Shown here in pieces: positions 1-61,409 of a stretch of 64,000 nt of DNA. This stretch comes from Octopus vulgaris. Taxonomy: Eukaryota. The stretch is from assembly GCA_951406725.2 (NCBI GenBank), contig OX597842.1:19840001-19904000 (forward strand). The letters run 5' to 3'. Positions within the stretch are counted from its first letter, which is position 1; each line of letters starts with the position of its first letter. The translations under genes were made by a program, and so were the position numbers. The notes beneath the pieces were generated by a model that worked only from the letters and a program-made list of their open reading frames with translations, did not search any database and had not been told where the DNA came from.

Positions 1-448
1 ATTCAAGCATCAGAAATCTGAATTAAATATTAACAGAGCAAACTTACACAGACTAGAAAGGCACAGAAAATCAAAGGGGAGAATGTATGGTGTTACAGCT
101 CCTTTCTTGGCAATCGGGGTTACTTCATTGTTGGTAGATGTACCATCCATACTCACAAATAGGTCTCACTTTTTTTCACCAAAAATTTAGATAAAAATCA
201 GGGGTACAAACTATCCAATAGATATCACAGGGATCTGAAGTGGTGCATCGGAGGTCCATGGCATACCCTGGACCTGGGCTTTTCAGTTTTAAAATTGTTA
301 TGGAAACTTTTCTGCAATGTTTACTAGAAAGCAGAAACTGGAAGTTTGGTATTTGGTATTTTTTGACATCCAGTCATCCCAATCTTTAGTTTAAAAATTT
401 TGATAATTGCAAACCCTACTTACAAAGTTATAGTAAGAGTTATCAATA

Positions 449-846
449 GGCGCAGAAGTGGCTGTGTGGTAAGTAGCTTGCTTACGAACCACATGGTTCC
501 GGGTTCAGTCTCACTGTGTGGCATGTTGGGCAAGTGTCTTCTACTATAGCCTTGGGCCGACCAAAGCCTTGTGAGTGGATTTGGTAGACAGAAACTGAAA
601 GAAGCCCGTCGTATATATGTATATATATATATGTGTGTTTGTGTGTCTGTTTGTCCTCCAAACATCGCTTGACAACTGATGCTGGTGTGTCTATGTCCCC
701 GTTACTTAGCAGTTCGGCAAAAGAGAACTGATAGAATAAGTACTAGGCTTACAAGGAATAAATCCTGGGGTCGATTTGATCGACAAAACGCGGTGCTCCT
801 GCATGGCCACAGTCAAATGACTGAAACAAGTAAAAAGAGAAAAAGA
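449..846 (+). mobile_element. tRNA-headed SINE, family 1 (dominant repeat of the window)
   Basis: GTGGCTGTGTGGTAAG...GGTTCCGGGTTCAGTC head with A/B-box-like motifs, internal (TA)/(TG) tract and GACTGAAACAAGTAAAAGAG tail. Further copies at ~5734-6130(+), 12475-12860(-), 19820-20200(-), 21803-22150(+), 42490-43118(-), 56567-56962(+) and 61712-62111(-). Confidence 0.85.
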
Positions 847-929
847 ATATAACCCCCACACACACACACCTTGGTATTGACCCCCTCATCCTTTGCCCTT
901 GTGGCAAATAAAAGAAACCCTTATTATAT

Positions 930-1460
930 ACAACTATCAGCTGAGTTCATTGTGAAGATGGCCCCTCTACTTTCCTTCAACCAGGAAGGGTAATCAGTTT
1001 TTATCTGCTCAGGGCCCATTGCAAAAGGGATCATACAGTGGACATGTCTGAAAGGGCTGAAGACCAGCAATTGCCATTTTGTCAAAACCCTAATAAACTT
1101 TGTCAGGTTTCACTTGAAGAGGAAAATCAGGGTGGAGAGGTAAGTGCTGGCTTCCAAGCAGTTTGTTGAAAGGTGGGTGAGAGAGGTGAGCATTACCTGA
1201 GTGAATGGGCCTTCTCTCAAAGTGTACCTGTATATTGGAGAGGAAAGACCGGGAGAGGGCATCCACCCTGGTGGTCAGGGAGACCTTGGATTTACTGGGC
1301 TTTCGTAACGCGTAGCCCTTGACAGTCCCCCCACTATCAGGTCTCTTACTTTGAATTTCTTTTATTCTTTGTATGACTTTTTACATGCTAAAACCCACAC
1401 TGTACCCTCCCGAATGTTTTCCTTTGTGTTAGCCCTCTGTGGTTAATAAAGAAATTATTA
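930..1460 (+). mobile_element. Decayed 3' end of an L1/Tx1-like non-LTR retrotransposon (copies at ~6215-6745 and ~57050-57580)
   Basis: Plus-strand translation AKGIIQWTCLKGLKT...NFVRFHLKRKIRVER*VLASKQFVERWV resembles L1/Tx1 ORF2 C-termini. It is followed by a T-rich UTR ending in AATAAA. Confidence 0.5.
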
Positions 1461-1475
1461 TAAATCATTTCTTAC

Positions 1476-1724
1476 TCTTTATCTCCAAATCAATTTTTCG
1501 AACGTTAAGGTTGTCATCATCAAATATCCAAGTCAAACATTTCTTAGTTACTTTTTTGATCCAAAGCGTGGAGGTATCTCCATCCTGTGTCACTTTATAG
1601 TCAGGGCCATCAGCGCATGTCTTGTCACATTCATATTTATAATTGCGGCACATCCAAACCACCGGTCGTTTCATATAAGGTATTGTTATCGTAAGGGTGA
1701 GACATCCATTGAGCACAGCAATTC
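1476..1724 (-). CDS. Gene A: Ig-like domain exon of the distal cassette (249 nt, phase 1-1)
   Basis: Acceptor tttcag|GA at 1724 and donor A|gtaag at 1476. Open frame (G)IAVLNGCLTLTITIPYMKRPVVWMCRNYKYECDKTC...STLWIKKVTKKCLTWIFDDDNLNVRKIDLEIK. Length and splice sites are the same in three copies. Confidence 0.85.
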
Positions 1725-2010
1725 CTGAAATAATGAAATCAGTTAAGAAGTTTGCTTCCAAATCATATGTTCCCGGGTTCAGTCCCACTACACTGCACCT
1801 TGGGAAAGTGTCTTCTACTACAGCCTGTGTGGATTTGCTAGATGGAAACTGAAAGAAGCCCATTGTATGTATCTGTGTGTGTGTGTATGTATATGTGTGT
1901 GTGTATATATGTATATACATACACACTTGTGTGTTTCAAAGCCTTGTGAGTGTATTTGATAGATGGAAACTGAAAGAAGCCCTTTGTTTATATATATGTA
2001 TATATATATG

Positions 2011-2619
2011 TAAATAGAAAATTATTATTTCTAAGTCACTGAATGAGAAACATTCAGTAACATTACTCGAGAGTAAGGATTATTTGCCAACATAATATGG
2101 CAGTCCTAGTTAGGATGATTGTTACTGTTATCTAGCCCTAGGAAACACTGCCTCCAGCTGGGTATATGACACATTATCTATGTCCTATGGGATGCTAAAC
2201 TTCCTTGTTTGAAAATATAAGGATGCAGCTAGTGTGTCATATAGCCAGTTGGAGACGATGTTTCCTAGGGCTAAGAACAGTAACAATCGTCCAGACCAGG
2301 ACTGCCACATTATGTTGGCAAATAATCTTTACCCTAGAGTACTGTTACTCAATGTCTTTTGTTCAGAGATTTAGAAATAATTTTCTATTTTTTAGATCAG
2401 TGACTGTGTGTCACTTTGGAAAGTATATATTTTGGACAAGAGTTTAGTGGAGTCATCTCTAGCCGAGCAGTTATTCTGTGCTGATGAAGGGAAATAACAC
2501 AGAGACCATTGGTATGCAGATAGTGTGCTGTATAACCAGCTGGAGATGATGTTTCCTGAGACTAAATAACAGTACCATTCGTCCTAACCAGGACTGCCAC
2601 ATTATGTTGGCAAATAATC

Positions 2620-2623
<4 letters not shown>
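2011..2623 (+). mobile_element. Penelope-like/non-autonomous element family A: inverted repeat, degenerate hammerhead motif, partial direct repeat (second copy ~7480-8093)
   Basis: Arm ~2011-2188 is the reverse complement of ~2217-2392, and part of that arm repeats directly at ~2535-2623. TCTGTG-CTGATGA...GAGA-CCATTGG-TA-TGCAGA lies at 2475-2520. Confidence 0.55.
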
Positions 2624-2657
<34 letters not shown>

Positions 2658-2761
2658 TATACACACAAAATAAGAAAATGGAGGAATAGATTCCTTTCAA
2701 TCATCAACTTCCAGATAATTCCAATTCATATAATTTATTAACTAATTATTTAGATTTAATA

Positions 2762-3976
2762 GGACAGGGCTGTATACTTTCTCCCGTTTTATTTCTATTA
2801 TTCATAGATTGGATCATGAAGGAAACTACGATTGAAAGCCAAACAAGCATTGAATGGACGGATGTGGAAGCTGTAGAAGATCTCGACTTTGCAGATGATA
2901 TAGCGCTGCTTTCGCAAACATAGCCAAATGCAAAATAAAATGTCAAAATTAGAAGCAATAGCTGCCAAACTAGGATTGAAAGTCAACCTCAAATCAAAAA
3001 TTATGCACGTTTATGAAGTAAACTTTGAATGTATTCAACTAGAAACTGGTGAACTAGAGGATGTAGCCGAGTTTATGTATTCAGGTAGTAAGATAACGTT
3101 TTCAGGTGGCACCGACGAAGATATTAAGGTGAGAATAAGTAAGGCAAGGACCGTTTTTCACCTGTTAAAGAAGGTATGGAGTGCAAGTGTAATTTCAATA
3201 AAGAACAAAATAACCTCTCGAAAGAGCTGTTCTTCACTCCTGCTCCAGAGCGTCGGCTGCGGGGTCACTCCGAAAAGCTCTATCTGTGACGATTTCATCT
3301 CAATCGAAGGAGAGGGGCCTTCTCTGTCCGGGTTGCGGTTCCGTGGAATGAGCTGCCGGACGAGATAGTGAAGATGCCGACGACCGCTCGATTCAAAGTC
3401 TCCCTTGACCACAAATGGCCTGAACTCTTTGCATGAACACCACCCTGTACATAACTCCATGTTCCCCTACATGGCCTTTTGCTGTTTGCTTTTTGAGCCC
3501 AAAAATTAACTTAACTTAAGTTAAGAATTTTTAACACTAACGTAAAAGTGGTGTTATTGTATGGGGCTGAGACATGGCAAACAACAGTCAAGTCAAATAA
3601 GCAAATACAATCATTCATCAACAGATGCTTGCGTAGTATACTTAAAATTAGATGGCCCCAACACATACGCAATATGGAGCTATGGCAATGAACAAATCAA
3701 GTTTTGATTAGGGAGCAAATATTTAAGAAAAGGAGGAAGTGGATTGGTAGCACAATTAGAAAAGACACACTAAATGTAGTGAAAAGTGCTTTAAAGTGGA
3801 AACCGGTTGGATATAGAAAGAAAGGTAGGCCTAAGAACTCGTGGCATAGATCAACACAAAAGGAACTAGAGAAAGGAGGACATTCATGGCAGAGTATAAG
3901 TACAGAGGCGAAATATTATGCAACATGGAATTCAATTATGAGTGGCCTATACTCCACGTTGGAGGGTCAAATGTAG
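2762..3976 (+). mobile_element. 5'-truncated, disrupted RTE-clade LINE (reverse transcriptase 3' half)
   Basis: QGCILSP, DLDFADDIALLS, LRIFNTNVKVVLLYGAETW and RWKWIG-like..ALKWKPVGYRKKGRPKNSW motifs. Contains stops and an internal insertion. Confidence 0.85.
3209..3518 (+). mobile_element. CR1/L2-like LINE 3' fragment nested in the RTE (copies ~9584-9897 and ~58820-59129)
   Basis: RLRGHSEKL...RR.AFSVR....WN.LPDEIVKMPTTARFKVSLD is a typical CR1/L2 ORF2 C-terminus. It has a short (TTAAC)n tail, and the RTE frame resumes after it. Confidence 0.7.
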
Positions 3977-3995
3977 GAAACAAGAATATATTTAC

Positions 3996-4034
3996 CACTT
4001 TGGGTGATCTTGTAAATGTTTGCACTTGAGAAAC
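3996..4034 (-). CDS. Gene A: 39-nt exon of the distal cassette (phase 1-1; xFSSANIYKITQS-G)
   Basis: ttttcatcttttacag|GTTTCTCAAG...CAAAGTG|gtaaat; joins in frame to the Ig-like exon at 1724. Confidence 0.8.
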
Positions 4035-6760
4035 CTGTAAAAGATGAAAACAAAAATTTTTGATTTTAAGATGAAATAATTCAAAACAATGTGAATAAAT
4101 GAACACTATATTTCACAGTAATTTGATTGCTAAATGATTAAACCAGCAATATCCGTTTTATGTTCTAAGTGGCCGGGTCCAGCCCCTCACACCTACCCTA
4201 CAATGTCAGTCTAAAAATAAACAATCACATCAGCAAAATGTCAAAACTACAAAATAAAGAATGATTAATTCAAAAACCAAGACTAAATGAGCACTACATT
4301 AAACGAAATAAACTGATTGCTAACGAGTTAAAGTAGCCATACCTGGCACAAAGATTCTACCTGTTTCGTGTTTAAAATGGTAATGGGTCAGCCTTTTACA
4401 CCTGTCTTACAATGTCATTCTAAAAATGAACGGACAAGGACTGCTATGCAAAGAAGTGCTGATCTCTAACTGTGGAGGCAATCTGTGGAAGAGGTGGACC
4501 CTGGAAGGTGCAGGACAAAACGGTGGAACATGAGGGCTTTGGATGTTGAGGCTGACATGTATTGATAAGTGACTGTGATTTCTGGGGATTTGCTCTTCTA
4601 CAGAAGATATGTCAAGCTAATGGAAATCAAGGATGTGGCCAGTATCGGTAATTAGTAAAAGGCACCTGTGCCAGTGACGTGTAATTTATAAATCTTTCCT
4701 CAAAACTTTATTGAGAATTTTCAAAATGTGCTCCATCGGCACAATGGAAATTTCAAATGTATCTGTAGACTTGTGAAACACATTTGGAAGTATTTGAGGA
4801 GTTTATCTTCTGCACTGCTAACTGAATGCATTCTTTAAGTTCAGCTAAAAGATTGCTCCATCTGGGGCATTGTGGTAAAGAAATTAATTGCAATCGTATT
4901 GAAAAAAGCTGTCATGGACAGATAAGGAATGAAAATAAAATTATAAACAAAATTAAAAATTTAATCACTTAACATATATTAAATATGTGAAGCAGAAACA
5001 AAAAGGACCTTTAAAAAAAAGGGTCCAATTTCACTGAAATAGATAATTAATTCTGGGACAGTCTGTATTGAAAACACTTAGCCCTACTCAAATGACCCTA
5101 CACTCTGAAATCTTTACCAAGAACAAAGTCCATGGGGTAAAGAGTGGCTATAAGGGGAATCCAGGTGGGCAGATATGGAGATAACGATGTAAATAAACAA
5201 ATAAAACTGAGTGGGTTAGATATACATCCATGCGTACACGTTAATAGAGAGGAAGCAAAGACTGAAAAATTTCAGACGGAGAATATTCAAGCATCAGAAA
5301 TCTGAATTAAATATTAACAGAGCAAACTTACACAGACTAGAAAGGCACAGAAAATCAAAGGGAAGAATGTATGGTGTTACAGCTCCTTTCTTGGCAATCG
5401 GGGTTACTTCATCTTTGGTAGATGTACCATCCATACTCACAAATAGGTCTCGCTTTTTTTCACCAACATTTTAGATAAAAATCAGGGGCACAACCTATCC
5501 AATAGATATTACAGGGATCTGAAGTGGTGTATCGGTAGTCCATGGCATACCCTGGACCTGGGCTTTTCAGTTTTAAAATTGTTATGGAAACTTTTCTGCA
5601 ATGTTTACTAGAAAGCAGAAACTGGAAGTTTGGTATTTGGTATTTTTTTGACATCCAGTCACCCCAATCTTTAGTTTAAAAATTTTGATAATTGCAAACC
5701 CTACTTACAAAGTTATAGTAAGAGTTATCAATAGGCGCAGAAGTGGCTGTGTGGTAAGTAGCTTGCTTACGAACCACATGGTTCCGGGTTCAGTCTCACT
5801 GTGTGGCATGTTGGGCAAGTGTCTTTTACTAAAGCCTCGGGCCGACCAAAGCCTTGTGAGTGGATTTGGTAGACAGAAACTGAAAGAAGCCCGTCGTATA
5901 TATGTATATATATATATGTGTGTTTGTGTGTCTGTTTGTCCTCCAAACATCGCTTGACAACTGATGCTGGTGTGTCTATGTCCCCATTACTTAGCAGTTC
6001 GGCAAAGGAGAACTGATAGAATAAGTACTAGGCTTACAAGGAATAAATCCTGGGGTCGATTTGATCGACAAAACGCGGTGCTCCTGCATGGCCACAGTCA
6101 AATGACTGAAACAAGTAAAAAGAGAAAAAGATTATAACCCCCACACACACACACCTTCGTATTGACCCCCTCATCCTTTGCCCTTGTGGCAAATAAAAGA
6201 AACCCTTATTATATACAACTATCAGCTGAGTCCATTGTGAAGATGGCCCCTCTACTTTCCTTCAACCAGGAAGGGTAATCAGTTTTTATCTGCTCGGGGC
6301 CCATTGCAAAAGGGATCATACAGTGGACATGTCTGAAAGGGCTGAAGACCAGCAATTGCCATTTTGTCAAAACCCTAATAAACTTTGTCAGGTTTCACTT
6401 GAAGAGGAAAATCAGGGTGGAGAGGTAAGTGCTGGCTTCCAAGCAGTTTGTTGAAAGGTGGGTGAGAGAGGTGAGCATTACCTGAGTGAATGGGCCTTCT
6501 CTCAGAGTGTACCTGTATATTGGAGAGGAAAGACCGGGAGAGGGCATCCACCCTGGTGGTCAGGGAGACCTTGGATTTACTGGGCTTTCGTAACGCGTAG
6601 CCCTTGACAGTCCCCCCACTATCAGGGATCTTACTTTGAATTTCTTTTATTCTTTGTATGACTTTTTACATGCTAAAACCCACACTGTACCCTCCCGAAT
6701 GTTTTCCTTTGTGTTAGCCCTCTGTGGTTAATAAAGAAATTATTATAAATCATTTCTTAC

Positions 6761-7009
6761 TCTTTATCTCCAAATCAATTTTTCGAACGTTAAGGTTGTC
6801 ATCTGCAAATATCCAAGTCAAACATTTCTTAGTTACTTTTTTGATCCAAAGCGTGGAGGTATCGCCATCCTGTGTCACTTTATAGTCAGGGCCATCAGCG
6901 CATGTCCTGTCACATTCATATTTATAATTGCTGCACATCCAAACCACCGGTCGTTCCATATAAGGTATTGTTATCGAAAGGGTGAGACTTCCATTGAGCA
7001 CAGCAGGTC
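6761..7009 (-). CDS. Gene A: Ig-like domain exon of the proximal cassette (249 nt, phase 1-1)
   Basis: tttcag|GA acceptor and A|gtaag donor. Translates (G)PAVLNGSLTLSITIPYMERPVVWMCSNYKYECDRTC...DLEIK. Confidence 0.85.
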
Positions 7010-8120
7010 CTGAAATAAAGAAATCAGTTAAGAAGTTTGCTTCCAAATCATACGATCCCGGGTTCAGTCCCACTACACTGCACCTTGAGAAAGTGTCTTC
7101 TACTACAGCCTGTGTGGATTTGGTAGATGGAAACTGAAAGAAGCCCATTGTATGTTTGTGTGTGTGTGTGTATGTATATGTGTGTGCATATATGTATATA
7201 CATACACATTTGTGTGTTTCAAAGCCTTGTTAGTGGATTTGATAGATGGAAACTGAGCGAAGCCCATTGTTTATATATATATATATATATAGGTTCATGA
7301 GTGGCTGTGTGGTGTGTAGCTTGTTTACCAACCACATTGTTCTGGGTTCAGTTCCACTGCATGACACCTTGGGCAAGTGTCTTCCACCATAGCCTCAGGC
7401 CAACCAAAGCCTTGTGAGTGTATTTGATAGATGGAAACTGAAAGAAGCCCATTGTTTATATAAATGTATATATATATGTAATTAGGAAGTTATTATTTCT
7501 AAGTCACTGAATGAGAAACATTCAGTAACATTACTCGAGAGTAAGGATTATTTGCCAGCATAATATGGCATTCCTAGTTAGGATGATCGTTACTGTTATC
7601 TAGCCCTAGGAAACACTGCCTCCAGCTGGGTATATGACACATTATCTATGTCCTATGGGATGCTAAACTCCCTTGTTTGAAAATATAAGGATGCAGCTAG
7701 TGCGTCATATAGTCAGCTGGAGACAATGTTTCCTAGGGCTAAGGAACAGTAACAATCGTCCTAACCAGGACTGCCACATTATGTTGGCAAATAATCTCTA
7801 CCCTAGAGTACTGTTACTCAATGTCTTTTGTTCAGAGATTTAGAAATAATTTTCTATTTGTTAGATCAGTGACTGTGTGTCACTTTGAAAAGTATATATT
7901 TTGGACAAGAGTTTAGTGGAATCACATCTAGCTGAGCAGTTATTCTGTGCTGATGAAGGGAAATAACCCAGAGACCATTGGTATGCAGATAGTGTGCTGT
8001 ATCACCAGCTGGAGATGATGTTTCCTGAGACTAAATAACAGTAACAATCGTCCTAACCAGGACTGCCACATTATGTTGGCAAATAATCTTTACTTCATAT
8101 ATATATATATATATATATAT

Positions 8121-8900: not shown

Positions 8901-9134
8901 ATATATATATATAGACACACATATATATATATATATACACACATATATATAAATATATATATATATACTATATATATATATATATATATATATAAATACA
9001 TATATATATATATATATAAATATATATATATATAAACACACAAAATAAGAAAATGGAGGAATAGATTTATTTCAATCATCGACTTCCAGATAATACCAAT
9101 TCATATAATTTATTAACTAATTATTTAGATTAAA

Positions 9135-10353
9135 TAGGACAGGGCTGTATACTTTCTCCCTTTTTATTTCTATTAGTCATAGATTGGATCATGAAGGAAA
9201 CTACGATTGAAAGCCAAACAAGCATTGAATGGACGGATGTGGAAGCTGTAGAAGATCTCGACTTTGCAGATGATATAGCGCTACTTTCACAAACGTAACT
9301 AAATGCAAAATAAAATGTCAAAATTAGAAGCAATAGCTGCCAAACTAGGATTGAAAGTCAACCTCTAATCAATAATTATGCACGTTAATGAAGTAAACAT
9401 TGAATGTATTAAACTAGAAACTGGTGAACTAGAGGATGTAGCCGAGTTTATGTATTTATGTAGTAAGATAACGTTTTCAGGTGGCACCGACGAAGATATT
9501 AAGGTGAGAATAAGTAAGGCAAGGACCGTTTTTCACCTGTTAAAGAAAGTATGGAGCGCAAGTGTAATTTCAATAAACAACAAAATAACCTCTCGAAAGA
9601 GCTGTTCTTCACTCCTGCTCCAGAGCGTCGGCTGCGGGGTCACTTCGAAAAGCTCTATCTGTGACGATTTCGTCTCAATCGAAGGAGAGTGGCCTTCTCC
9701 GTCCGATTTGCAGATCCGTGGAATAAGCTGCCGTACGAGATAGTGAAGATGCTGACAACTGCTCGATTCAAAGTCTCCCTTGACCACAAATGGCCTGAAC
9801 TCTTTGCATGAACACCACCCTGTACATAACTCCGTGTCCCCCTACATGGCCTTGCTTTTTTGCTTTTTGAGCCCAAAAATTATCTTAACTTAACCTAAGT
9901 TAAGAATTTTTAACACAAACGTAAAAGCGGTGTTATTGTATGGGGCTGAGACATGGCAAACAACAGTCAAGTCAAATAAGCAAATACAACCATTCATCAA
10001 CAGATGCTTGCGTAGTATACTTAAAATTAGATGGCCCGAACACATAAGCAATATGGAACTATGGTAAAGAACAAATCAAGTTTCGATTAGGGAGCAAATA
10101 TTTAAGAAAAAGTGGAAGTGGATTGGTAGCACAATTAGAAAAGACACGCCAAATGTAGCAAAAAGTGTTTAAAGTGGAAACCGGTTGGATGTAAAAAGAA
10201 AGGTAGGCCTAAGAACTCGTGGCATAGATCAACACAAAAGGAACTAGAGAAAGGGGGACATTCATGGCAGAGTATAAGTACAGAAGCAAAAAATTATGCA
10301 ACATGGAATTCAATTATGAGTGGCCTATACTCCATGTTGGAGGGTCAAATGTA
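9135..10353 (+). mobile_element. Disrupted RTE LINE fragment (copy in tandem unit 2)
   Basis: Colinear with 2762-3976, including the nested CR1-like insert, with extra stops and frameshifts. Confidence 0.85.
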
Positions 10354-10373: not shown

Positions 10374-10412
10374 CACTTTGGGTGATATTATAATTTTGTG
10401 CCCTTGACAAAC
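10374..10412 (-). CDS. Gene A: 39-nt exon of the proximal cassette (CLSRAQNYNITQS-G)
   Basis: cttttacag|GTTTGTCAAGG...CAAAGTG|gtaaat; completes the signal peptide and starts the mature domain. Confidence 0.8.
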
Positions 10413-12119: not shown

Positions 12120-12165
12120 AGACAAATGTTACAAACAAACAGCAGAACAAGATCCATTTAGCCAT
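12120..12165 (-). CDS. Gene A: start/signal-peptide exon MAKWILFCCLFVTFV (+1 nt)
   Basis: ttattttttcag|atcATGGCT...TTTGTCT|gtaagt; hydrophobic core and a phase-1 donor compatible with the 39-nt exons. Confidence 0.82.
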
Positions 12166-21803: not shown

Positions 21804-23571
21804 AGGAGTGGCTGTGTGGTAAGTAGCTTGCTTACCAACCACATGGTTTCGGGTTCAGTCCCACTGCGTGGCACCTTGGGCAAGTGTCTTCTGCTATAGC
21901 CCCGGGCCGACCAATGCCTTGAGTGGATTTGGTAGACGGAAACTGAAAGAAGCCTGTCGTATGTGTATGTTTGTCCCCCTAGCATTGCTTGACAACCGAT
22001 GCTGGTGTGTTTACACCCCGTCACTTAGCGGTTCGGCAAAAGATACCGATAGAATAAGTACTGGGCTTACAAAGAATAAGTCCCGGGGTCGATTTGCTCG
22101 ACTAAAGGCGGTGCTCCAGCATGGCCGCTGTCTGAAACAAGTAAAAGAGAAAGGATACACGGTATGTGTGCATGGCTTTTGTCACAAACATACGTACGTA
22201 CACCTACTGCATACATGTTCATATGCGTGTGCGAGGAGAGATAGAGAGAAGATATACCTTTCGTTTTTGCTTGTTGTTTGCATGTATGTTTATGTAACGA
22301 ACGGTATGCTACGTAGAAAATGATGAGATTGCTTCCATAGAACGACAGCAGTCGAAGTTATACAAAACATTTCTATTTCACCGTTACGTGTGACATCAAC
22401 AATCGCAGAGCATATCTGTACAAGAAAGAGCGCGCCTTATCGACTGCTACCGTTGCAGCCTTACATTTCTACTTGTCCTGTTTTCACCATTACGGCATCA
22501 TGCAACGGACAGATAGTGCAATATCTGTTGATGCGACGATAGTTGTTTCTTTTAATTTAAAAAGGGATCTTTTCGGTTTGAACGGCAGATTTTTCTAGCA
22601 GTGTCATATGAAATTGTCACTCATAATTACGACCCTAGTATCGATCTATTGCATTTCAATGTTTTAAGGTTAGGAGTGGGAGAAGGGTATCTTTTTTTCT
22701 TCAGAAATGTAAATAAACGCAATTTGTTTCATAAACGAGGTACATATTCATACGGCACGGAATGTTTTTCACCTCAATAGACGTCAATGATTGGTTGAAA
22801 TTGCAGAAAAAAAAACATCTCAATAAAGCCAAGAGAAAAAGATGTTTTATAAACACATTCCACCAGTACACGAAGTAAACTGCCGCTCAAACCGAAAAGA
22901 TCCGTAATGTCTGTTGATTCAACGATGGTTGCCCTTTTAAAAATGCTTTCACTTTGGCACCTCACTTCGTAACTCAAAAACCATTACAGACGAAAAGCGA
23001 GATTGGCTGTGTTTCTACAAAATTCCTCGTTTGTATATTTTTATCTTTTTCCCGAAGGGTGGGAAATCCGTGCCCCACTCCCTCGGAAAAAATTTAATTA
23101 AAAATATCCATATTCCTAAGTTGAGGGGAAAAAATCGGATCCTGTGAATCTTCCGAAAGTCCGTTGGCGTAAATCTTTCGTTTCATATTCGTTTAATGCA
23201 CATTTTTCTCACACCCTTTTCACTGGGTTATTTCGCTTTTGTTTCGGTGACCAGGAGTGAAAGTAAAATATTAAGCTTTCCTTTTCGAAAATACTCCGGC
23301 GAACATCAACATTATAAGTTGGAATTTCTCCGTTTTGACGGGAATCTCTCGGATATTTCCAGAGAACCGTTTGAAACTATCTGAAGCAACTTTAAGCAGT
23401 CTAGAAAACTCTCGGTAAAAAAAAATTCAAGCGAAAAGGTATGATTCAAGGGCTGTTATTTGTAGGAAAAACCGTTATTTTCAAAACTCTCCTTAAAGCC
23501 TACTCACAATAAGAAAAAGAAAATTCGCAAATCGGCAGAAAATCTGAATTAACTTTCATGAGAATGTGGGT

Positions 23572-23587
23572 GGCCCTGAAAAGGACC
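23572..23587 (-). terminator. Histone 3' stem-loop of H2B-1
   Basis: GGTCCTTTTCAGGGCC followed by ACCCA on the minus strand. Confidence 0.9.
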
Positions 23588-23619
23588 GTTATTCTTCGAT
23601 GAAGAGAAACGAAGCAAGT

Positions 23620-23997
23620 TTACTTGCTGCTAGTGTATTTGGTGACGGCCTTGGTACCCTCAGAGACGGCGTGTTTGGCCAACTCACCAGGAAGGAGAAG
23701 ACGGACAGCAGTCTGCACCTCACGGCTACTGATGGTCGAACGTTTGTTGTAGTGAGCCAAGCGGCTGGATTCAGAAGCTATTCTTTCGAACAGATCGTTG
23801 ACAAAACTGTTCATGATGGACATAGCTTTGCTGGAGATGCCAGTGTCCGGGTGGACTTGCTTCATCACTTTGTAGATGTAGATGGAATAACTTTCCTTCC
23901 TCTTCTTCTTACGTTTCTTGTCCCCGGCAGGGCGAGAGGTCTTGGCCTTGGAGGCCTTCTTGGCTCCTTTCGAAGCAGTTGCTGGTGCTGGTGGCAT
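23620..23997 (-). CDS. H2B: Histone H2B (125 aa, intronless)
   Basis: [10 protein letters not shown]...[26 protein letters not shown]...TKYTSSK. The true ATG is at 23997; the ORF track starts 8 codons upstream. Confidence 0.98.
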
Positions 23998-24266
23998 AAT
24001 GTCACTTGCTCTACTAATCAACCCTCGTCCACGCTATTTATAATTGACAAGTAGGCTCAGCCGAGCACCTTGCTGACGTTTCGCGCCAATCAATTTCATT
24101 GGTGGAATTTGACAGCAGTCTAATCACGTGACATAAACCCGCTCCTTTTTCGCTCGGCAGTTTGTGACTGCTGGAGCCTCCTGACTGCTATTTAAAGCCA
24201 AAAGCCGCCGTCTTTTTTAAACTTTGGCCGTCTTCTTTGTTGAGAACTACTGTCGAACTTTGAAAT
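23998..24266. promoter_or_regulatory. Bidirectional H2B/H2A promoter (duplicate at 31647-31915)
   Basis: 269-bp divergent spacer with TATAAATA on the minus strand (~24034-24041), CCAAT/ATTGG boxes, TGACGT, TCACGTGA and TATTTAAA (24189-24196). Confidence 0.75.
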
Positions 24267-24644
24267 ATGTCTGGACGTGGTAAAGGAGGAAAAGTAAAGG
24301 GAAAGAGCAAGACCCGTTCGTCCCGTGCCGGACTTCAGTTCCCTGTCGGTCGTATCCACCGTCTTCTCCGTAAGGGAAATTATGCCCAACGTGTCGGTGC
24401 CGGAGCCCCAGTCTACTTGGCCGCTGTGATGGAATATTTGGCTGCTGAGGTGTTGGAATTGGCAGGAAATGCTGCCAGAGATAACAAGAAATCGAGAATC
24501 ATTCCCCGTCACTTGCAGTTGGCCATCCGTAACGACGAAGAATTGAACAAACTTTTGTCCGGAGTGACCATCGCCCAGGGTGGTGTTCTTCCCAACATTC
24601 AGGCTGTTCTTCTGCCCAAGAAAACCCAGAAGGCTTCCAAGTAA
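24267..24644 (+). CDS. H2A: Histone H2A (125 aa)
   Basis: [15 protein letters not shown]...[20 protein letters not shown]; no C-terminal SQ motif, so not H2A.X. Confidence 0.98.
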
Positions 24645-24682
24645 ATTAATTCGGTGGCATTTTTGGCTTTAGCCAAAACAAC

Positions 24683-24698
24683 GGCCCTTTTCAGGGCC
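24683..24698 (+). terminator. Histone 3' stem-loop of H2A-1
   Basis: GGCCCTTTTCAGGGCC. Confidence 0.9.
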
Positions 24699-24765
24699 TC
24701 TCACACTCTGCGTATTCGTCTTCTCTCGACTTAATATTTGCGATTTTTTCGTCTGAAGAATTTTT

Positions 24766-24966
24766 GGTACTACTTCAGAAGAGTGGTCCCGGTGACCGCG
24801 CTAGCTAGACGTGACTAGTCGATCCTTTGTGTTTCTTATTTACTTTAATTCATTTTGTGTTTTATTTACTTTGTTTAGAAATAATTATTTATTTTGTGTT
24901 TTATTTACTTTGCTAGGATCGTCTCGTTGCGAGTGCGCGCACCGGGATCTCTCGTTATGTAGTACC
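24766..24966. mobile_element. GGTACTAC-TIR MITE
   Basis: GGTACTAC...GTAGTACC termini and internal motifs shared with 29347-29531. Confidence 0.65.
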
Positions 24967-27402
24967 GAATTTTTGCATTTTTTCTCACGCAGGGGGAAAC
25001 GATTGGTCTAGTCTCCAGAGATTCGCCACCCGCTTCCATAACATTAGCTTAACCAATATTTCGGAAATGGTAGCTGAGACGTCATTGTAATCAGCTGTTT
25101 TATCTTTACCAATTTACTAAAGAGTGTCATGAAATTGTCATCCATAATTATGACCCTAGTATCAATCTGTTTTAGGGTTTGGAGGGAGGGGATCTTTTTT
25201 TTCGTGTTTCTTAAACGAGAGACATTCATACGGCACAGAACGTTTTCATCTCAATAGACGTCATTGATTGGTTGAAAAAAAAACATCTTACAAACTATAG
25301 AATTTTCTCAATAGAGCCAAGAGAAAAGGATGTTTTATAAATACATTCTACCAGTATACGAAGTCTCAATTTTGGTCAACTTGCGCCGCAGGGTCTCGGA
25401 GGAGATAGTATTAGTCGAAAGCTACCAAACCTACCACACAGACAACCTCAGCATTATATATATATTAGCAGTACTGCCCGGGTCTGTTTCGATCCTTTAG
25501 AATTGAAATTTTTGAAGTAAAAATTTTGCATCATTCTCTTTAAGTGAACATTTTTCTGGTTGAAATACACCGAAAAATGGTGACACAGCAGTGAAAAAAT
25601 CGTAAAAAATAGGGATTTTCATAGAAAAAAGCATTTATTGATGTAAATAAATTTTGGTGTTAACATGGTCCGATTCGAATTTTTTCTTCTACGGAATGAA
25701 GAGCAAGCCTTCTTCTATCATACTCTCAATTTTGGTCAACTTGCACCGCAGGGTCTCGGAGGAGATGGTGTTAGTTGAAGGCTACCAAACCTACCACACA
25801 CAGACAACTTCAGCTTATTAATATAGTTGGACTTTTAACCACAACGGCACAAGGGAGACCACTCTGAATCTTAGCTGCCCTCGCTGTGTTCAAATTCCGT
25901 CGAGGTCGACTTTACCGTTCATCCCTTCGGGGTCGATTAAATAAGCACCAGTTACGCACTGGAGTAGATGCAATCGACTTAATCCCATTGTCCCCTCTGT
26001 GGGTAATAAATAAATAGGTATCTCGGCTGCCGTTACGTTCTGAGTTCAAATTCCGCCGAGGTCGACAAAGTACCAGTTACGCAGTGGGGTCGACATAATC
26101 GACTTAATAACTATGTCTGTCCCCTCTGTGTTTAGCCCCTTGTGGGTAATAAAGTGCACTGTCATGCTTTTAGCTGACAGAAGTGAAAGTAGTCAACTTC
26201 GTGTATTTCCGTCAGGTTTATACCTTCGTTAATTTACGTACCACCACGCTGTTAGGTTTATAAAGTTTATAAATAAATACATTTCATTCCATGTTCTGTT
26301 TAAACTTTATAAATAAATATATTCTTGCATTATTCATTAGTTTTTAAAAAAGAAATCACACCAAATCTGCAAGGATTCTTTCTCTCCAAGTTTTAAATGA
26401 GACATTGCTGGCATAATTTCGTGATGAAAAAAGTTAAAAATGAAGGAAAGAAGTGGGGGTTATAAATTAGAAATGTCTATTTTTGCAGATTAGCATTCCC
26501 CGTCGACTTGAAGCAGGCTATCGACGTGCTAAAAATAACAGCCAAATCTCCAAAACTGCGATAACAGAACGAAAGAAACCTGTAAACAACCTACTCACCT
26601 TTGCACATTCTTCTATCAGAAACCTCCAGCAGTAAACGACAAAGTAAAGATACAGAAAAATAAGTGCGGAAATAACAAAAAATACCCAGCGCAAAACATA
26701 TGCTTCTGGAACTGAAAATGTGCATTATAAGGGGAAAATCGGATCCTGGTCCCCACCCGCCAGGATCGTTTGCGCAAATCCTTTCTATTCATATTCGATT
26801 TCTACACAATTACTGGATCTTTTCGGTTTAAACGGCAGCTTTTTCTAGTGGCGTCATATGAAATTGTCACCCATAATTATGACCCTAGTATCGATCTATT
26901 GCATTTCAATCTGTTTTAGGGTTAGTGGGGAAAGGATATCATTTTCTCTTCAGAAATGTAAATAAACCCAATGTTTCTTAAACGAGGGACATTCATACGG
27001 CACAGAATGTCTCTCTACCTCAATAGAGTATCTTTATTATGATCATGGCGATTTTACATAAAGAGACAATACAGGACAAACAAAAGACAAAGATGCTATA
27101 TGAGGTCGCATAGAGTAAATATTAAAAATTTACTTAAATAATACGTACTTTATATATCGTTCTAAAAACTTAGAACTTCGATTTAAACTGAAACAAAGCC
27201 ACAGAAACACCGTTACCTCAATAGACGTCAGTTTTACAAACACACTAACAGTATACGAAGTTTAAAAGTTCTTAGTTACCTAGAAATTATGTTAAAAACT
27301 GCCGTTCAAACCGAAAAGCTGGAATTTCTCCTGTTTTCGCTATGGAGCGAGGATCTTAAGCATATCAACGGTCGAAAGAGAACACTTAGGATATAACGTG
27401 GC

Positions 27403-27418
27403 GGCCCTAAAAAGGGCC
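27403..27418 (-). terminator. Histone 3' stem-loop of H3
   Basis: GGCCCTTTTTAGGGCC on the minus strand, 30 nt after the stop. Confidence 0.9.
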
Positions 27419-27447
27419 ATTTAATATGCTGACAAAGCAACGGCGAC

Positions 27448-28447
<1,000 letters not shown>

Positions 28448-28480
28448 GCGAACATTCCTAAGCTTATTCAAGAGCATACC

Positions 28481-28496
28481 GGCCCTTTTCAGGGCC
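28481..28496 (+). terminator. Histone 3' stem-loop of H4
   Basis: GGCCCTTTTCAGGGCC-ACCCA. Confidence 0.92.
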
Positions 28497-29346
28497 ACCC
28501 ACTTTTTAATTTAAGTCAACTCTCCTAAATCGCGATGTGCTTCTTCTGTGTTTATTGTTATTTTGCAACTACTGGTATTTAACGCGCCCCTTGGTGGGAA
28601 AACTTTGTTCACACCCTTTTGGGGAAAAAAATTATTTCACACCGATGTACGACCCTTTACGAAATATTTACTTTCGGTCCACACTTTTCGGGGGCGATCT
28701 TTCGGTATAACTATCGTAAGTGGCTTTGTTACATTTCTGAAGATAAACCCTTTACTCCCACCAACCTTGAATCCCCTATATATATAAATACACTTTGTTG
28801 AAATGTATCCGGTACTTCTTCCGAAGTTACGCCTTTTCGGGAAAGCGTTAGGGGTAAGCTCTAGTCCGTGTGTATCATAAGGAAGGGTGGCTTGCCTTTG
28901 CAAATACTGATAGGGCACAGAGTGTCTAAAGCCAACTGGAGGTGTCCTCCTGGGGCTACAAACTACAGTAGCATCCACCCTTAGGGGTTAGCCATATTTA
29001 AATGGCAAATACACGTCACGGTTAGGGGATCGGCTGCACGAAGTATTTGCCCCCAGACCATCTGCGTTTTCTTTATCGTTAAATCAGATATTTCGGGACA
29101 CTTGCATCGCCCTAGTGCAGAATATTCTGTGCAAACACTTGGATGCGATTGCTGATTCACAGGGACTGGCAGATTTCTCTTTAGAAAGTCTAGTAACACT
29201 TAGGAGCATTATTGGTAGCCGTAAGTTTAGTACCCGGTCACCAATCTAATAGACAAGATGTACTTTGCTAACTATAATCGATTGTTCAGTGGAGAAAATC
29301 TGCAGCCTCTTAATGCGGGTGGAGTTTGTTTTTGGCTACGTATTTC

Positions 29347-29531
29347 GGTACTACTTAAGAAGGGCCCGGTGCGCGCGCACTCGCGTTAGCTAGTCATGAA
29401 TAGTCGATCCTACGACGACTACCTAGCAAAGTAAAATAATTTTTTTTACACAAAGTAAATAAAAAACATACAAAATAAGGATCGACTAATTGCGAGTGCG
29501 CGCACCAGGACCACGCTTCTTAAGTAGTACC
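29347..29531. mobile_element. GGTACTAC-TIR MITE (best-preserved copy)
   Basis: Perfect 16-bp TIR GGTACTACTTAAGAAG / CTTCTTAAGTAGTACC plus subterminal inverted GCGCGCACTCGC. Confidence 0.8.
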
Positions 29532-31220
29532 CATATTTCCCTCCGATATTCATGGGATCGGACGGCTGTCTCTGCTAATATCGTTAATGAGCTTTGTTAT
29601 TGCATAATCGTTCCATTGTGCTGAAGACAATCGGAGATGTTAGGAAATTTCATAAAAGTGGGAAAAGTTGGCGGTTTTGCTACGTGCTTCTGTCAGAACT
29701 CCGGCCGCATTTGGAGACTGCAATACTTTAATCCGGGTGCAGGGTTGAATCTGTCTACACTTTTTACCGCTTTTTATCTTCATTGTTTACTTTTCCCTAT
29801 TTAATTTTCATTGTAATTTCATTCCTTTATAAATAACTCATCCGATTTCATATCAGTTATTTAAGCTAACGATTCCTCCGTGGTGGTTTGCAATTTAGAA
29901 ATAGTTTATTCAAATAATAAAGAAATATATAGTATTTTATCAGATCTTCGGTGTTGGAGTTATTGTACTGATGACAAACAAACCCAGCTGCTAACTGCAG
30001 GCGTTACGCCTCGACAGGACAACGCCTTTAATGAAATTTCACATAAATACCTAATTAAATTCTCAGTCGGTTATTAGTTCAGTTTAAGTAAAACATTTCA
30101 TTCCATGTGCATTATTCATTATTTTGTTTTTAAAAAGGAATTCACACCAAATCTACACAAATGACCACCACCGCGATCACATACACACGTGCGTGTGTAT
30201 ATGTGGCTATATGTCTGACTAATGTGTGTGTCTGTATTTATTGTATGTGTGTAAAGTAGTTATGCTTATATTATCCATTATAGTAATATTTGTCTGTTGA
30301 AATCCGTTTTAAGGCGGTCAATAGTTTAATTAAAGATGTGTCTATACATGTGTAATGTATACACATGTATATATATATAATCATGCGAACTTACATAGAC
30401 AATTACAAAGAATGTTATGAGTTCGAATGAGACTTAAAAATTTAGTTGTAATATGACATAAACGAAAACTTGGCTTACTTTTGCCTTTACGAGAACTTCT
30501 TCTGGAGACACGGAAGAGGTACGTTGGCGCATTTAATACTACACACAGGTCTTCGTACACCAGTTAGCCCTGTTTACTTGCCTATTGATGGCTAAAATAT
30601 GAAAATAAGGAAGGTATCAGATGGTTGTTAGTTACAAGCCCTTAACTTTTTCTGAGAGAGCAATTAACAACAATTAAGAATTTGCCTGTTTTCTGTTTTG
30701 TTTTAATTTATAGAATAAAATATTTAAAAATGAATGGACCCGCCCACTTTTTAAACATCTTCGACGCAAACCCCCTTTTTCGGTTACGGTGAATTCGAAT
30801 CTGCAAAATAAATTGGCAAAAAAATAACAATCAACATTTCTAAACTACCACCCGTTTCCTTCATTTTTTACAGAAATCTTTTAGGAACTAACTTATTCTA
30901 AATATGCGGAAAAATACGGACAAAAGTCTCCAAACTATCCTGTAATTACGGTTAAGGTTAGCGCTGGGGGACACCAGACAAAATTGAAGTTGGAGGGATT
31001 TCTTAAATTTCAAAAAAGTATCATTAAAAACTTGCAAACATGTTCGTTTATATATTCGCGTGAGTATACAAATACCTGTGCTTCGATGTACACAAATTGT
31101 TTCCACCCCCAATCCATTCTATGACTGTTGTCTCCTGCGCAAAGCCTGGAGAAATTAACCCCAAAAACATGGATCGCAAATCGGCAGAAAATCTGAATCA
31201 ACTTTCATGAGAATGTGGGT

Positions 31221-31236
31221 AGCCCTGAAAAGGACC
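31221..31236 (-). terminator. Histone 3' stem-loop of H2B-2 (variant)
   Basis: GGTCCTTTTCAGGGCT: the basal pair is G-U instead of G-C. Confidence 0.85.
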
Positions 31237-31268
31237 GTTATTCTTCGATGAAGAGAAACGAAGCAGGT

Positions 31269-31646
31269 TTATTTGCTGCTAGTGTATTTGGTGACGGCCT
31301 TGGTACCCTCAGAGACGGCGTGTTTGGCCAACTCACCAGGAAGGAGAAGACGGACAGCAGTCTGCACCTCACGGCTACTGATGGTCGAACGTTTGTTGTA
31401 GTGAGCCAAGCGGCTGGATTCAGAAGCTATTCTTTCGAACAGATCGTTGACAAAACTGTTCATGATGGACATAGCTTTGCTGGAGATGCCAGTGTCCGGG
31501 TGGACTTGCTTCATCACTTTGTAGATGTAGATGGAGTAACTTTCCTTCCTCTTCTTCTTACGTTTCTTGTCCCCGGCAGGGCGAGAGGTCTTGGCCTTGG
31601 AAGCCTTCTTGGCTCCTTTCGAAGCAGTTGCTGGTGCTGGTGGCAT
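31269..31646 (-). CDS. H2B: Histone H2B, second copy (identical protein)
   Basis: Same translation as 23620-23997, offset 7649. Confidence 0.98.
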
Positions 31647-31915
31647 AATGTCACTTGCTCTACTAATCAACCCTCGTCCACGCTATTTATAATTGACAAG
31701 TAGGCTCAGCCGAGCACCTTGCTGACGTTTCGCGCCAATCAATTTCATTGGTGGAATTTGACAGCAGTCTAATCACGTGACGTAAACCCGCTCCTTTTTC
31801 GCTCGGCAGTTTGTGACTGCTGGAGCCTCCTGACTGCTATTTAAAGCCAAAAGCCGCCCTCGTATTTAGTCGCCAACTCTCTTCTTTGTTGAGAACTACT
31901 GTCGAACTTTGAAAT

Positions 31916-32293
31916 ATGTCTGGACGTGGTAAAGGAGGAAAAGTAAAGGGAAAGAGCAAGACCCGTTCGTCCCGTGCCGGACTTCAGTTCCCTGTCGGTC
32001 GTATCCACCGTCTTCTCCGTAAGGGAAATTATGCCCAACGTGTCGGTGCCGGAGCCCCAGTCTACTTGGCCGCTGTAATGGAATATTTGGCTGCTGAGGT
32101 GTTGGAATTGGCAGGAAATGCTGCCAGAGATAACAAGAAATCGAGAATCATTCCCCGTCACTTGCAGTTGGCCATCCGTAACGACGAAGAATTGAACAAA
32201 CTTTTGTCCGGAGTGACCATCGCCCAGGGTGGTGTTCTTCCCAACATTCAGGCTGTTCTTCTGCCCAAGAAAACCCAGAAGGCTTCCAAGTAA
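31916..32293 (+). CDS. H2A: Histone H2A, second copy (identical protein)
   Basis: Same translation as 24267-24644. Confidence 0.98.
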
Positions 32294-32331
32294 ATTAATT
32301 CGGTGGCATTTTTGGCTTTATCCAAAACAAC

Positions 32332-32347
32332 GGCCCTTTTCAGGGCC
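32332..32347 (+). terminator. Histone 3' stem-loop of H2A-2
   Basis: GGCCCTTTTCAGGGCC. Confidence 0.9.
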
Positions 32348-32622
32348 TCTCACACTCTGCGTATTCGTCTTCTCTCGACTTAATATTTGCGATTTATAAT
32401 CTGTCAAAACTATGTTATTTGGTATTGGTGCCGAATGAATGTTTTATTATTTATTCTTTCACCCGCATAATTTTCACTAGACGAAGAATACTCTTTTGTA
32501 TGGGATCAGGAACCGCTGACCTCAAGGTGTGCGGTACTATTTAAGCAGAGTGGTCCCGGTGTGTTTGAGAATGTTTTTATGAGACACGGCTTTTTTTTTT
32601 TTTACTTATATTCCATACTTTG

Positions 32623-32773
32623 TTTAAAAGCAGCGGATATTTAACAAAAGCTGCTGCTCGGGGTTTCACGTTCCCGTTTGTCGGACAGCTTTGTTTGAAA
32701 TACGGAGGGACTGTCCGGCGAACGGAAGCGTAAAGCCCCGGGTAGCAGCATTAGAATTTCTGCTGCTTTTAAA
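32623..32773. repeat. ~150-bp fold-back (hairpin) element
   Basis: TTTAAAAGCAGCGGA..GCTGCTCGGGGTTTCACGTTCCCGTTTGTCGGACAG pairs with CTGTCCGGCGAACGGAAGCGTAAAGCCCCGGGTAGCAGC..TCTGCTGCTTTTAAA. A probable decayed relative lies at ~34795-34960. Confidence 0.7.
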
Positions 32774-33954
32774 TAAGGCATATTACTCTACTTATGGTAT
32801 TTGAGTACGCTTTTTTCCCACCTTTTTTAACATGTGTTTACTCCGGTGTATGTATATATATAGGAATTGTTTTACACCTATTACACTTTTTTTGGCTTTT
32901 GTGCCAGGGTTAGACCCGTAAGATTCACGATGTGGATTTTCCGAGTCCTCTCCCCCACCCAACCCCTTTCGCGAGCGCGCCTTTTTTTTTTTTTTTTTGC
33001 CATATTCGTTTAGAGGAAGTTTTTACACTATTTTCATATTTTGTTTTTCTGACCGGTTTGACGAGCTAGTGCGTGTGCGCGCACAGGGACCACTCGTCAT
33101 AAATAGTGGTGGGGCTGGAGAAAATGTGTCTGCATTTAAAAAAGGACGGATGCTAGGTGTGAGAGGCCTTGCATGAACACGCCGTGATCCCTTACCAAAA
33201 GGTTTCAGTTAAAATAACAGGGCTCATGGGGTCGGCTATCCTGTTCTTTTCACTTCATATGTCCCTTTTTATTTGTTCTTGTAACTCATTCAATTTCATT
33301 TTCATTGTAAATAATCCATTCGATTTCACTGTAAATAGTTCCATTTCATCCACATGACCCCAAATCATTGTATTGTCCCCATCTATGTAAACCCTTACGG
33401 GTAATAAAGAAATACACTCTTCATAAATAGTACCATGTTATGCTGCAAGCCCCTTATTTTTGTTCGGGGAGAAAAGGGATGGGTGGAAAACTGTAGGGGC
33501 CATGCGCAGGGATGCTGTCGGTGAGGTGAGGGTTGGCAACGAGTATAGTGGAGAGTTCCTGGTAGAAGTAGGCTGTTCACCAAGGTTCAGTCCTCAGCCC
33601 ACTCTTATTCATTAGTCCTCTGGGCAATAGCAGGAATTCATGACAAGCTGACCCTAGGGGCTCCTCTGTGTTGGTGACCTTCGCTTATAGCTGGGTCACT
33701 ACCAAAGCTGAAGGAGAAATTTCAGGTGTGGTAGGCAAGGCTAGAATTGAAGGGCCTTTGGGAAAAGACCATAGTCTTTATGTATATATATATATATTAT
33801 ATGTACGTGTAGAGGTAGGTACGTACATATATGTTTTATTTTATTTATTAATATATTATATATACATAAGTTCAGCAAAAATTTAGATTCAAATGAATAT
33901 GGTACTTATGCACCAGAATTTTGTATGGTGTTATCCATAAAAATTTGCGGGGTG

Positions 33955-34277
33955 ATTATAATCAAAAATAAGCAACAAGAATGACTCTGGTAATTTGGTA
34001 CAATTGTTTCGCACTACAACATTTTATTAAAAGTGGTTGGACTTTACCACCTCATATGTTCTTAAAATTTAAATCCACATCTTTGTATATCTACCTTCTC
34101 TATAATGTTGCCATTTGATTTGAAAATTTTTATATTAATGGAAAACCTATATAATTGGCTGATGAGTACTCAACATCTTAAATCTGTTGTAATACTTACA
34201 GCATTTAATAAAATGATGTAGTGCAAAACAATTGTACCACATTACCGGAGTCATTCTTGTTGCTTATTTTGATTATA
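33955..34277 (+). mobile_element. Penelope-like element family C with hammerhead-like motif and an inverted partial copy
   Basis: TAATTGG-CTGATGA-GTAC...GTGC-AAAA-CAATTG-TA-CCACATTA at 34152-34244. The inverted copy at ~33955-34031 retains GTGC-GAAA-CAATTG-TA-CCAAATTA. Confidence 0.55.
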
Positions 34278-34284
34278 TATATAT

Positions 34285-34560
34285 GTGGAGGCGCAATGGC
34301 CTAGTGGACTCGCAGTCGCAGGATCGCGGTTTCGATTCCCAGACCGGGCGTTGTGAGTGTTTATTGAGCGAAAACACCTAAAAGCTCCATGAGGCTCTGG
34401 CAGGGGGGGGGTGATCCCTGCTGTACTCTTTCTCCCACTCTTCTGTCGGCCTGCTCGCTTAGCCAGCGGGGTGGCGTCCTTCGAAGGCTAAAACAATGCG
34501 AACACATTGTGACCAGCGATATGTAACTACATCTGATGGTCTGGTCGGTCACGTGATCAC
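34285..34560 (+). mobile_element. tRNA-headed SINE, family 2
   Basis: GTGGAGGCGCAATGGCCTAGTGG...GGTTTCGATTCCC head. Copies on the minus strand at ~40430-41010, 50050-50417 and 53485-53870. Confidence 0.8.
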
Positions 34561-56228: not shown

Positions 56229-56362
56229 TTATTTTGTAAAATATTTATAGCCAAAGAAAGCGAGTCCGACAAGGATTGCAGCAAGGATCAGTGAGCCAAA
56301 AATGATTCCGACAATCTCAAGTATACTGTAGGTTTTTGGTTTAGGAGGTTCAGGTTTCGGAT
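56229..56362 (-). CDS. Gene B: terminal exon with Pro/Lys stalk, transmembrane helix and 6-aa tail
   Basis: ttgtttgtcaattgcag|AT, then (N)PKPEPPKPKTYSILEIVGIIFGSLILAAILVGLAFFGYKYFTK*; phase matches the Ig exon donor. Confidence 0.85.
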
Positions 56363-57596: not shown

Positions 57597-57845
57597 TCTT
57601 TATCTCCAAATAAATGTCTGCAGCTTTAAGGTTGTCATCATTAAATCTCCAAATCGAACATTTCTTAGTTACTTTTCTGATCCAAAGCGTGGAGGTATCT
57701 CCACTATGTGTTACTTTATAGTCAGTGCCGTTAGCGCATGTTCTGTCACATTCATATTTATAATTCTGGCACTTCCAAACCACCGGTCGTTTCATATTAG
57801 GTATTGTTATCGAAAGGGTGAGGTTTCTATTGAGCACAGCAGGTC
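57597..57845 (-). CDS. Gene B: Ig-like domain exon (249 nt, phase 1-1)
   Basis: tttcag|GA ... A|gtaagg. Translates (G)PAVLNRNLTLSITIPNMKRPVVWKCQNYKYECDRTCANGTDYKVTHSGDTSTLWIRKVTKKCSIWRFNDDNLKAADIYLEIK. Confidence 0.87.
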
Positions 57846-59606: not shown

Positions 59607-59645
59607 CACTTTGGGTGATCTTGTAAATGTTTGCACTTGAGAAAC
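59607..59645 (-). CDS. Gene B: 39-nt exon (CFSSANIYKITQS-G)
   Basis: cttttacag|GT...G|gtaaat; identical to 3996-4034. Confidence 0.82.
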
Positions 59646-61363: not shown

Positions 61364-61409
61364 AGAGAAATGTTACAAACAAACAGTAGAACAAGATCCA
61401 TTTAGCCAT
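61364..61409 (-). CDS. Gene B: start/signal-peptide exon MAKWILFYCLFVTFL (+1 nt)
   Basis: ttttttcag|atcATG...CTCT|gtaagt. The four exons sum to 46+39+249+134 = 468 nt, i.e. 155 aa plus stop. Confidence 0.85.

Follow-up and report, generated by a model that had tools for sequence, protein, structure and literature searches.

The 64,000-nt stretch of Octopus vulgaris DNA analysed here as the window (G000:C29:19840001-19904000) holds two minus-strand genes, A and B, of an uncharacterised octopod family with an immunoglobulin (Ig) fold. Positive selection very probably acts on this family, as the ratio of replacement to silent substitution rates (dN/dS) across 26 paralogous Ig-fold exons is 1.93. 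As for function, we favour, at a probability of roughly 0.55, a role in recognition at the cell surface or after secretion, with evolution driven by an external partner that itself changes fast, microbes or parasites being the likeliest. Both genes follow one plan: a signal-peptide exon is followed by cassettes, each pairing a 39-nt with a 249-nt exon in phase 1, and a single last exon closes the gene; the number of cassettes per gene in the family ranges from one to four. Gene A encodes 401 residues with four domains, of which domains 3 and 4 lie to the left of the window, and its stop is the third codon of the last exon. Gene B is complete in the window and encodes 155 residues comprising one domain, a stalk, a membrane helix and a 7-residue tail.

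A preliminary description of this DNA had proposed diversifying selection on the Ig exons from counts in single exon pairs. The proposal stands at the level of the family, but it does not follow from the pair that was counted. The 26 exons form the close cluster among at least 80 matches in the genome. Using our own implementation of the GY94 models, we obtained the M0 value of 1.93 for this set (likelihood ratio test (LRT) against 1, 15.8), so that the ratio stays above 1 with more copies, and 2.29 (LRT 15.1) for the 20 closest exons, a set that drops six more divergent ones. In direct counts the proportion of replacement differences (pN) was 0.136 and that of silent differences (pS) 0.092; pN/pS was 1.55 (codon bootstrap 1.01-2.72), rising to 1.87 (1.19-3.2) once transitions were corrected for. 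The excess is a property of the young cluster, because 23 distant exons give a dN/dS of 0.47.

Recombination across the 26 exons is strong (PHI-like test, p=0.0005), and PMC10127084 names recombination, biased conversion and multi-base changes as producers of false positives; simulations were therefore run. All-neutral simulations with conversion reached 1.93 in one of 292 cases, and neutral simulations with doublet mutations in none of 264. The latter result, together with a dN/dS of 2.17 after seven multi-step codons were dropped, rules out doublet mutations as the cause of the excess. There was no sign of GC-biased conversion, the minor replacement alleles (unpolarised) running 30 toward A/T and 19 toward G/C. 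Site models, suggested earlier as a check, proved unreliable as proof: on one tree M2a/M1a gave 63.7 and M8/M8a 63.4, and 40 null runs with conversion reached M2a/M1a values of up to 65.6. Versions of the site tests with segment trees and gamma rates gave 27-74 without a null run and are not used as proof. Fourteen codons, picked in all five tree partitions, fall in loops and at alternating strand positions of both sheets.

The replacement excess lies in the frequency of the variants. Most replacement variants are common to several copies, with only 9 of 70 being singletons; variants of the 3′ (downstream) intron are mostly private (74/115 singletons), and the short upstream flank resembles the exon (6/24). 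Ten domains of O. sinensis are new mosaics of the residue pool, and at 50 of 51 variable sites they share two or more residues with these exons. The pattern is consistent with selection maintaining an old set of variants that conversion shuffles into new combinations. Of the 82 residues 27 are invariant, and along the predicted strands they alternate with variable ones, residue exposure being read from strand alternation only.

The pair counted earlier consists of the Ig-fold exons of gene A domain 2 (1476..1724) and domain 1 (6761..7009), both on the minus strand, in phase 1 and bounded by AG..GT. Our recount agrees that they differ at 10 of 249 nt, in eight codons and seven residues, and that the adjoining downstream intron (900-1475) is quiet, with 5/576 differences (p=0.004 vs the exon). 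The 39-nt exons of the same two domains (3996..4034 and 10374..10412, minus strand) likewise differ at 7 nt and five residues, as reported (p=0.0002 vs introns). The claim that the Ig exons diverge faster than their introns is not borne out for this pair: the exon differs by 4.0% and the introns of the whole duplicated unit by 3.1% (149/4796; p=0.26), and in the upstream intron (1725-2011) 16 out of some 285 positions are different (5.6%; p=0.54 vs the exon when tested with 15 differences). Nor is the near-exclusive amino acid change a signal, as nine replacement differences and one silent difference are expected by chance from the site numbers (p=0.35). Among the pair contrasts only the 39-nt exons stand out. 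Their difference is old variation in the lineage of the 10374 copy and not fast change, because the 3996 copy is identical to the gene B copy and to that of the next cassette (domain 3).

We found that exon 1476-1724 is a hybrid, its front coming from the next cassette (domain 3) and its back from the 6761 cassette, joined within the exon between 1622 and 1613. The cassette is near-identical to the domain 3 cassette over approximately 1800-5284 and to the domain 1 cassette over approximately 260-1620. At informative exon sites, 6 of 9 located 5′ of 1622 match domain 3, and 16 of 19 located 3′ of 1613 match domain 1. The flanks behave in the same way, the upstream 150 nt showing one difference to domain 3 vs. 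seven to domain 1, and the downstream 300 nt 17 vs. three. The low-divergence tract common with the domain 1 cassette (260..1620, no strand assigned; permutation p=0.002) takes in the 3′ half of the exon and the downstream intron, and seven of the ten counted differences fall in the 5′ part, of domain 3 lineage. The intron is thus quiet because of a recent crossover in the exon. Conversion restricted to introns, which the preliminary description had held in reserve as a counter-explanation, is therefore half right for the pair: recent exchange accounts for the quiet intron, and it lies inside the exon. With the crossover explaining the intron and the exon-intron contrast not significant, we rejected selection as inferred from the single pair. 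In the simplest reading, unequal crossing-over inside the exon, between cassettes 5.3 kb apart, would have turned a three-domain gene into the four-domain gene A and created a new hybrid domain; two sister genes of gene A have three domains. Two sites of the 5′ part match domain 1, which calls for an additional exchange or mutation. In the introns (window 1-2011 vs. 5285-7294), double substitutions at adjacent positions are common, with four pairs among 41 differences and about one expected.

A number of results weigh against a recognition family under positive selection. The signal peptide carries replacement differences only (pN 0.077, pS 0). M2a/M1a is inflated by conversion, which leaves the site lists soft, and variable sites occur on both sheets and at either end of the model, not on one face. 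A tree-free count of distinct mutations gives an N/S of 1.36-1.39 (p=0.08-0.17; 0.03 and 0.10 with the intron-derived spectrum), and replacement mutations show no surplus over the prediction from intron rates (73 vs. 70; 125 vs. 145). Flanking introns diverge by 0.055-0.075 in pairwise or 0.09-0.10 in multiple alignment, vs. the exon pN of 0.136, a modest excess that depends on the method. The denominator of dN/dS rests on about 50 silent sites, these are possibly under constraint (15 observed where 21 were expected, p=0.10), and the simulations assume a panmictic family.

Several of these points suit neutral birth-and-death, by which the genes are passengers of segmental duplications that also contain histone and zinc-finger genes, and the patchwork arises through conversion and relaxed surface constraint, with no positive selection involved. 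The crossover explains the exon pair, the counts of distinct mutations match intron rates, conversion inflates the site tests, the Ig genes sit in repeated units with histone genes, and 7 of 12 last exons carry stops. Yet neutral simulations reached 1.93 in only 1/556 cases overall, 26 of 26 cluster exons retain length, frame and splice sites, and the 27 invariant residues should pull a neutral average far below 1; 40 simulations of purifying and neutral sites with conversion gave whole-exon values of 0.23-1.14. We therefore give the neutral explanation little chance.

The genome holds at least 80 matches to the exon, with 12 near-identical genes in one cluster, and 75 of 81 distinct translated matches have an open frame and both splice sites. 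Assembly duplicates are an unlikely source of the copies, as even the most similar copy of each exon differs from it by 3-27 residues. When 1.84 billion proteins were searched with a profile, 39 matched; the 20 looked up by name comprised 14 octopod (Octopus, Argonauta), three unnamed, one abalone, one hemichordate and one bacterium, the last three being weak. Database proteins with these exons are labelled uncharacterised or hypothetical in O. vulgaris, O. sinensis and O. bimaculoides. More clusters or single copies of the 246-249 nt exon were seen on C29 at 7.2-7.6 Mb (L094-L100), 0.33-0.35 Mb (L082-L084) and 27.4 Mb (L071-L074), and further copies (L086-L093) on C2, C4, C5, C16, C23 and C28. 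To some of these copies, database models add a second Ig-like domain type and longer tails. Copies L105 (C19), L103 and L104 are decayed or partly duplicated, without splice sites or with stops.

The domain is predicted to be a V-type Ig beta-sandwich. A structure model built from 71 aligned sequences reached a predicted local distance difference test score (pLDDT) of 86-96 over the domain and aligned with V-set domains (nanobody VHH, CD8 alpha, CD2) over 91-93 residues at Z 10.3-10.8 and 8-12% identity; the nanobody gave Z 10.8 with a root-mean-square deviation of 2.6 A over 93 residues, and CD8 gave Z 10.5. Canonical V-set domains have a B-F disulfide and a D-x-x-x-Y-x-C motif. The canonical cysteine pair is absent from the octopus domain, where Cys stand at 25, 32, 36 and 62 and strand F has Trp-x-Phe. 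As the preliminary description stated, these four Cys and Trp 23, 54 and 65 are common to the compared exons, and 20 of 82 whole codons separate gene B from the 6761 exon; 22 separate it from the 1476 exon. Trp 23, in a predicted strand that we assign as C, is invariant in 26/26 exons, and six of the 26 have an extra Cys at codon 7. Pfam V-set matched 2 of 71 members (best E 0.066) and I-set 7 of 71 (best E 1.4e-4), and neither matched the three window exons. Among solved structures the only sequence match was CD2, at a non-significant E of 0.27.

The 12 last exons of the cluster come in three kinds. Five encode a membrane helix and a short tail ending within about 10 residues of the helix; in these five genes the membrane segment is under purifying selection (pN 0.045 vs. 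pS 0.144). Four stop after the hydrophobic stretch, with small residues in front of it (judged by eye and by hydrophobicity), and so resemble signals for glycosylphosphatidylinositol (GPI) anchoring; the hydrophobic ends score 2.7-3.3. All four of these last exons, at G000:C29:19955009, 19983089, 20149494 and 20325453, have the GGA-to-TGA stop that creates the GPI-signal-like end. Three last exons stop at codon 3, all in three- and four-domain genes, and this early stop also terminates an O. sinensis model. From sequence the proteins are thus predicted to be membrane-bound, lipid-anchored or secreted.

On the recognition reading that we favour, the proteins would sit on the cell surface or be secreted, and would bind, or be bound by, a fast-changing partner. 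Conversion would reshuffle an old pool of surface residues, and selection would hold many variants at intermediate frequency and leave the core unchanged. The membrane and GPI-like forms may act as adhesion or capture molecules, and multi-domain forms without an anchor, gene A among them, may be soluble and serve as binders or decoys. A tail of seven residues leaves little room for signalling of its own. The identity of the partner is the weak step in this explanation. Recognition of self, kin or gametes would instead make the family an identity code, with like binding like or with a partner on sperm, egg or the cells of another individual. Adhesion is a suitable task for small Ig-fold proteins that have short tails and occur in GPI-like forms, the variability spans the whole predicted surface, and the residue pool is common with O. 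sinensis; however, the diversity seen is between paralogs of one assembly and the anchorless four-domain forms fit less simply, so that we regard this alternative as unlikely.

We hold an identity code within the animal (nerve, skin, sucker), written in cassette combinations as in Dscam or clustered protocadherins, to be improbable. RefSeq lists isoforms up to X18, differing in their cassettes, at one O. sinensis locus, but these may stem from reads assigned to the wrong paralog, the copies being almost identical. A separate linker exon accompanies every cassette, and database models string the cassettes in series, which would speak against mutually exclusive exons of the Dscam type; one contig likewise runs from the end of an Ig exon back to another. 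Developmental codes alone, moreover, need no dN/dS near 2.

Recognition of an outside partner has a close parallel in the vertebrate CEACAM/PSG system, and it is possible, though we say so tentatively, that octopus independently evolved a similar germ-line repertoire of Ig-fold recognition proteins, renewed by exon crossovers, deployed in membrane, GPI-anchored and secreted decoy forms and driven by an arms race with pathogens. PMC2832619 describes CEACAM genes as clustered Ig genes with diversification, gene conversion and birth-and-death, and their products as secreted, GPI-anchored and short-tailed membrane forms, the GPI forms arising via stops in the membrane exon. The octopus family shares the clustering and the conversion, and the stops in its last exons would give three comparable forms, GPI attachment and secretion being predicted here. 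Unlike CEACAM/PSG, its domains are all repeats of one V-like module with four cysteines of their own, and its variable sites are not confined to the CFG face. No immunoreceptor tyrosine-based inhibitory or activation motif (ITIM/ITAM) tail is present in the five intact membrane forms, while more distant relatives have longer tails. Sequence homology to CEACAM N domains was not found: when solved structures were searched by profile, CD2 alone matched at E<=10. In the fold comparison CEACAM N domains are not among the best 50 of 999 aligned structures, where antibodies fill the places.

Molluscan parallels were also considered. According to PMC7494358, PTC2/GRC of the snail Biomphalaria are polymorphic transmembrane clusters tied to schistosome resistance by mapping. 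Like the octopus genes they are clusters of hyperdiverse membrane proteins, single-pass in kind, but silent divergence in PTC2 is described there as exceeding replacement divergence, the reverse of what we see. No snail protein occurs among the named profile matches (20/39). The uncharacterised repeat protein P0065 of Haliotis rufescens has a stalk, a membrane helix and tandem Ig-like repeats that resemble the octopus domain in their Cys-x3-Cys and Trp pattern (E 6.5e-11), but the profile comparison is weak (probability 46%) and P0065 is a putative relative only. By analogy the octopus family may work like CEACAM/PSG and it recalls the snail clusters; by the tests run it is a member of neither.

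Searches by topic or gene names found no description of the family in the literature, bioRxiv supplements, subscription papers and other gene-naming schemes being outside their scope, and the gene identifiers were not found in three supplementary files of PMC9712504, in the text and file of PMC13230822 or in PMC9258296. The present analysis adds the evidence that a crossover took place within the exon, the demonstration that the pairwise argument fails, and controls by simulation. Little is known of how octopuses tell microbes, parasites and other individuals apart at the molecular level, and a young cluster of small foldable proteins with a whole-domain dN/dS near 2 offers direct candidates to express and test. 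If the CEACAM/PSG-like reading is true, the family would give a first point of access to specific non-self recognition in cephalopods, and the appearance in a mollusc of the CEACAM route to membrane, GPI-like and secreted forms would clearly exemplify convergence. For converting gene families in general, the lesson is that single-pair contrasts of exon and intron and standard site tests mislead.

The remaining features of the two genes, all on the minus strand, are as follows. In gene A the coding part of the signal-peptide exon is at 12120..12165, the 39-nt exon 10374..10412 likely encodes the signal-peptide end and the first strand, and 3996..4034 encodes a linker and the first strand. Exon 1476..1724 is part of database model P0001, and the intron at 1..1475 leads toward domains 3 and 4 and the last exon (G000:C29:19836198, 19829640 and 19828508). 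Gene B has the coding part of its signal-peptide exon at 61364..61409, its 39-nt exon at 59607..59645, its Ig-fold exon at 57597..57845 and its last coding exon, with a proline-rich stalk, membrane helix, tail and stop, at 56229..56362. In three of four runs, from three studies and only guessed to be RNA, there are contigs in which the 39-nt exon is directly followed by the Ig exon, with the intron removed; they support the view that some member of the family is spliced, and name no tissue.

Within the window (23500-39500) and over G000:C29:19.74-20.20 Mb, histone H2A/H2B genes, sometimes H3/H4, at 98-100% identity, and a C2H2 zinc-finger gene have been duplicated together with the Ig genes, in units of approximately 55-150 kb; the block from 20.20 Mb is inverted. 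This co-duplication explains database models fused to histone H2B (P0014, P0041). In every cassette, the intron that separates the 39-nt exon from the Ig exon contains broken reverse-transcriptase fragments with a nested insert (2690-3970, 9060-10350 and 58300-59585), which we take to be similar to long interspersed nuclear elements (LINE-like). Finally, a repeat resembling short interspersed nuclear elements (SINE-like) forms head-to-tail arrays at 45785-46910 and 50868-51957, on opposite strands and with periods of about 181 and 173 nt.

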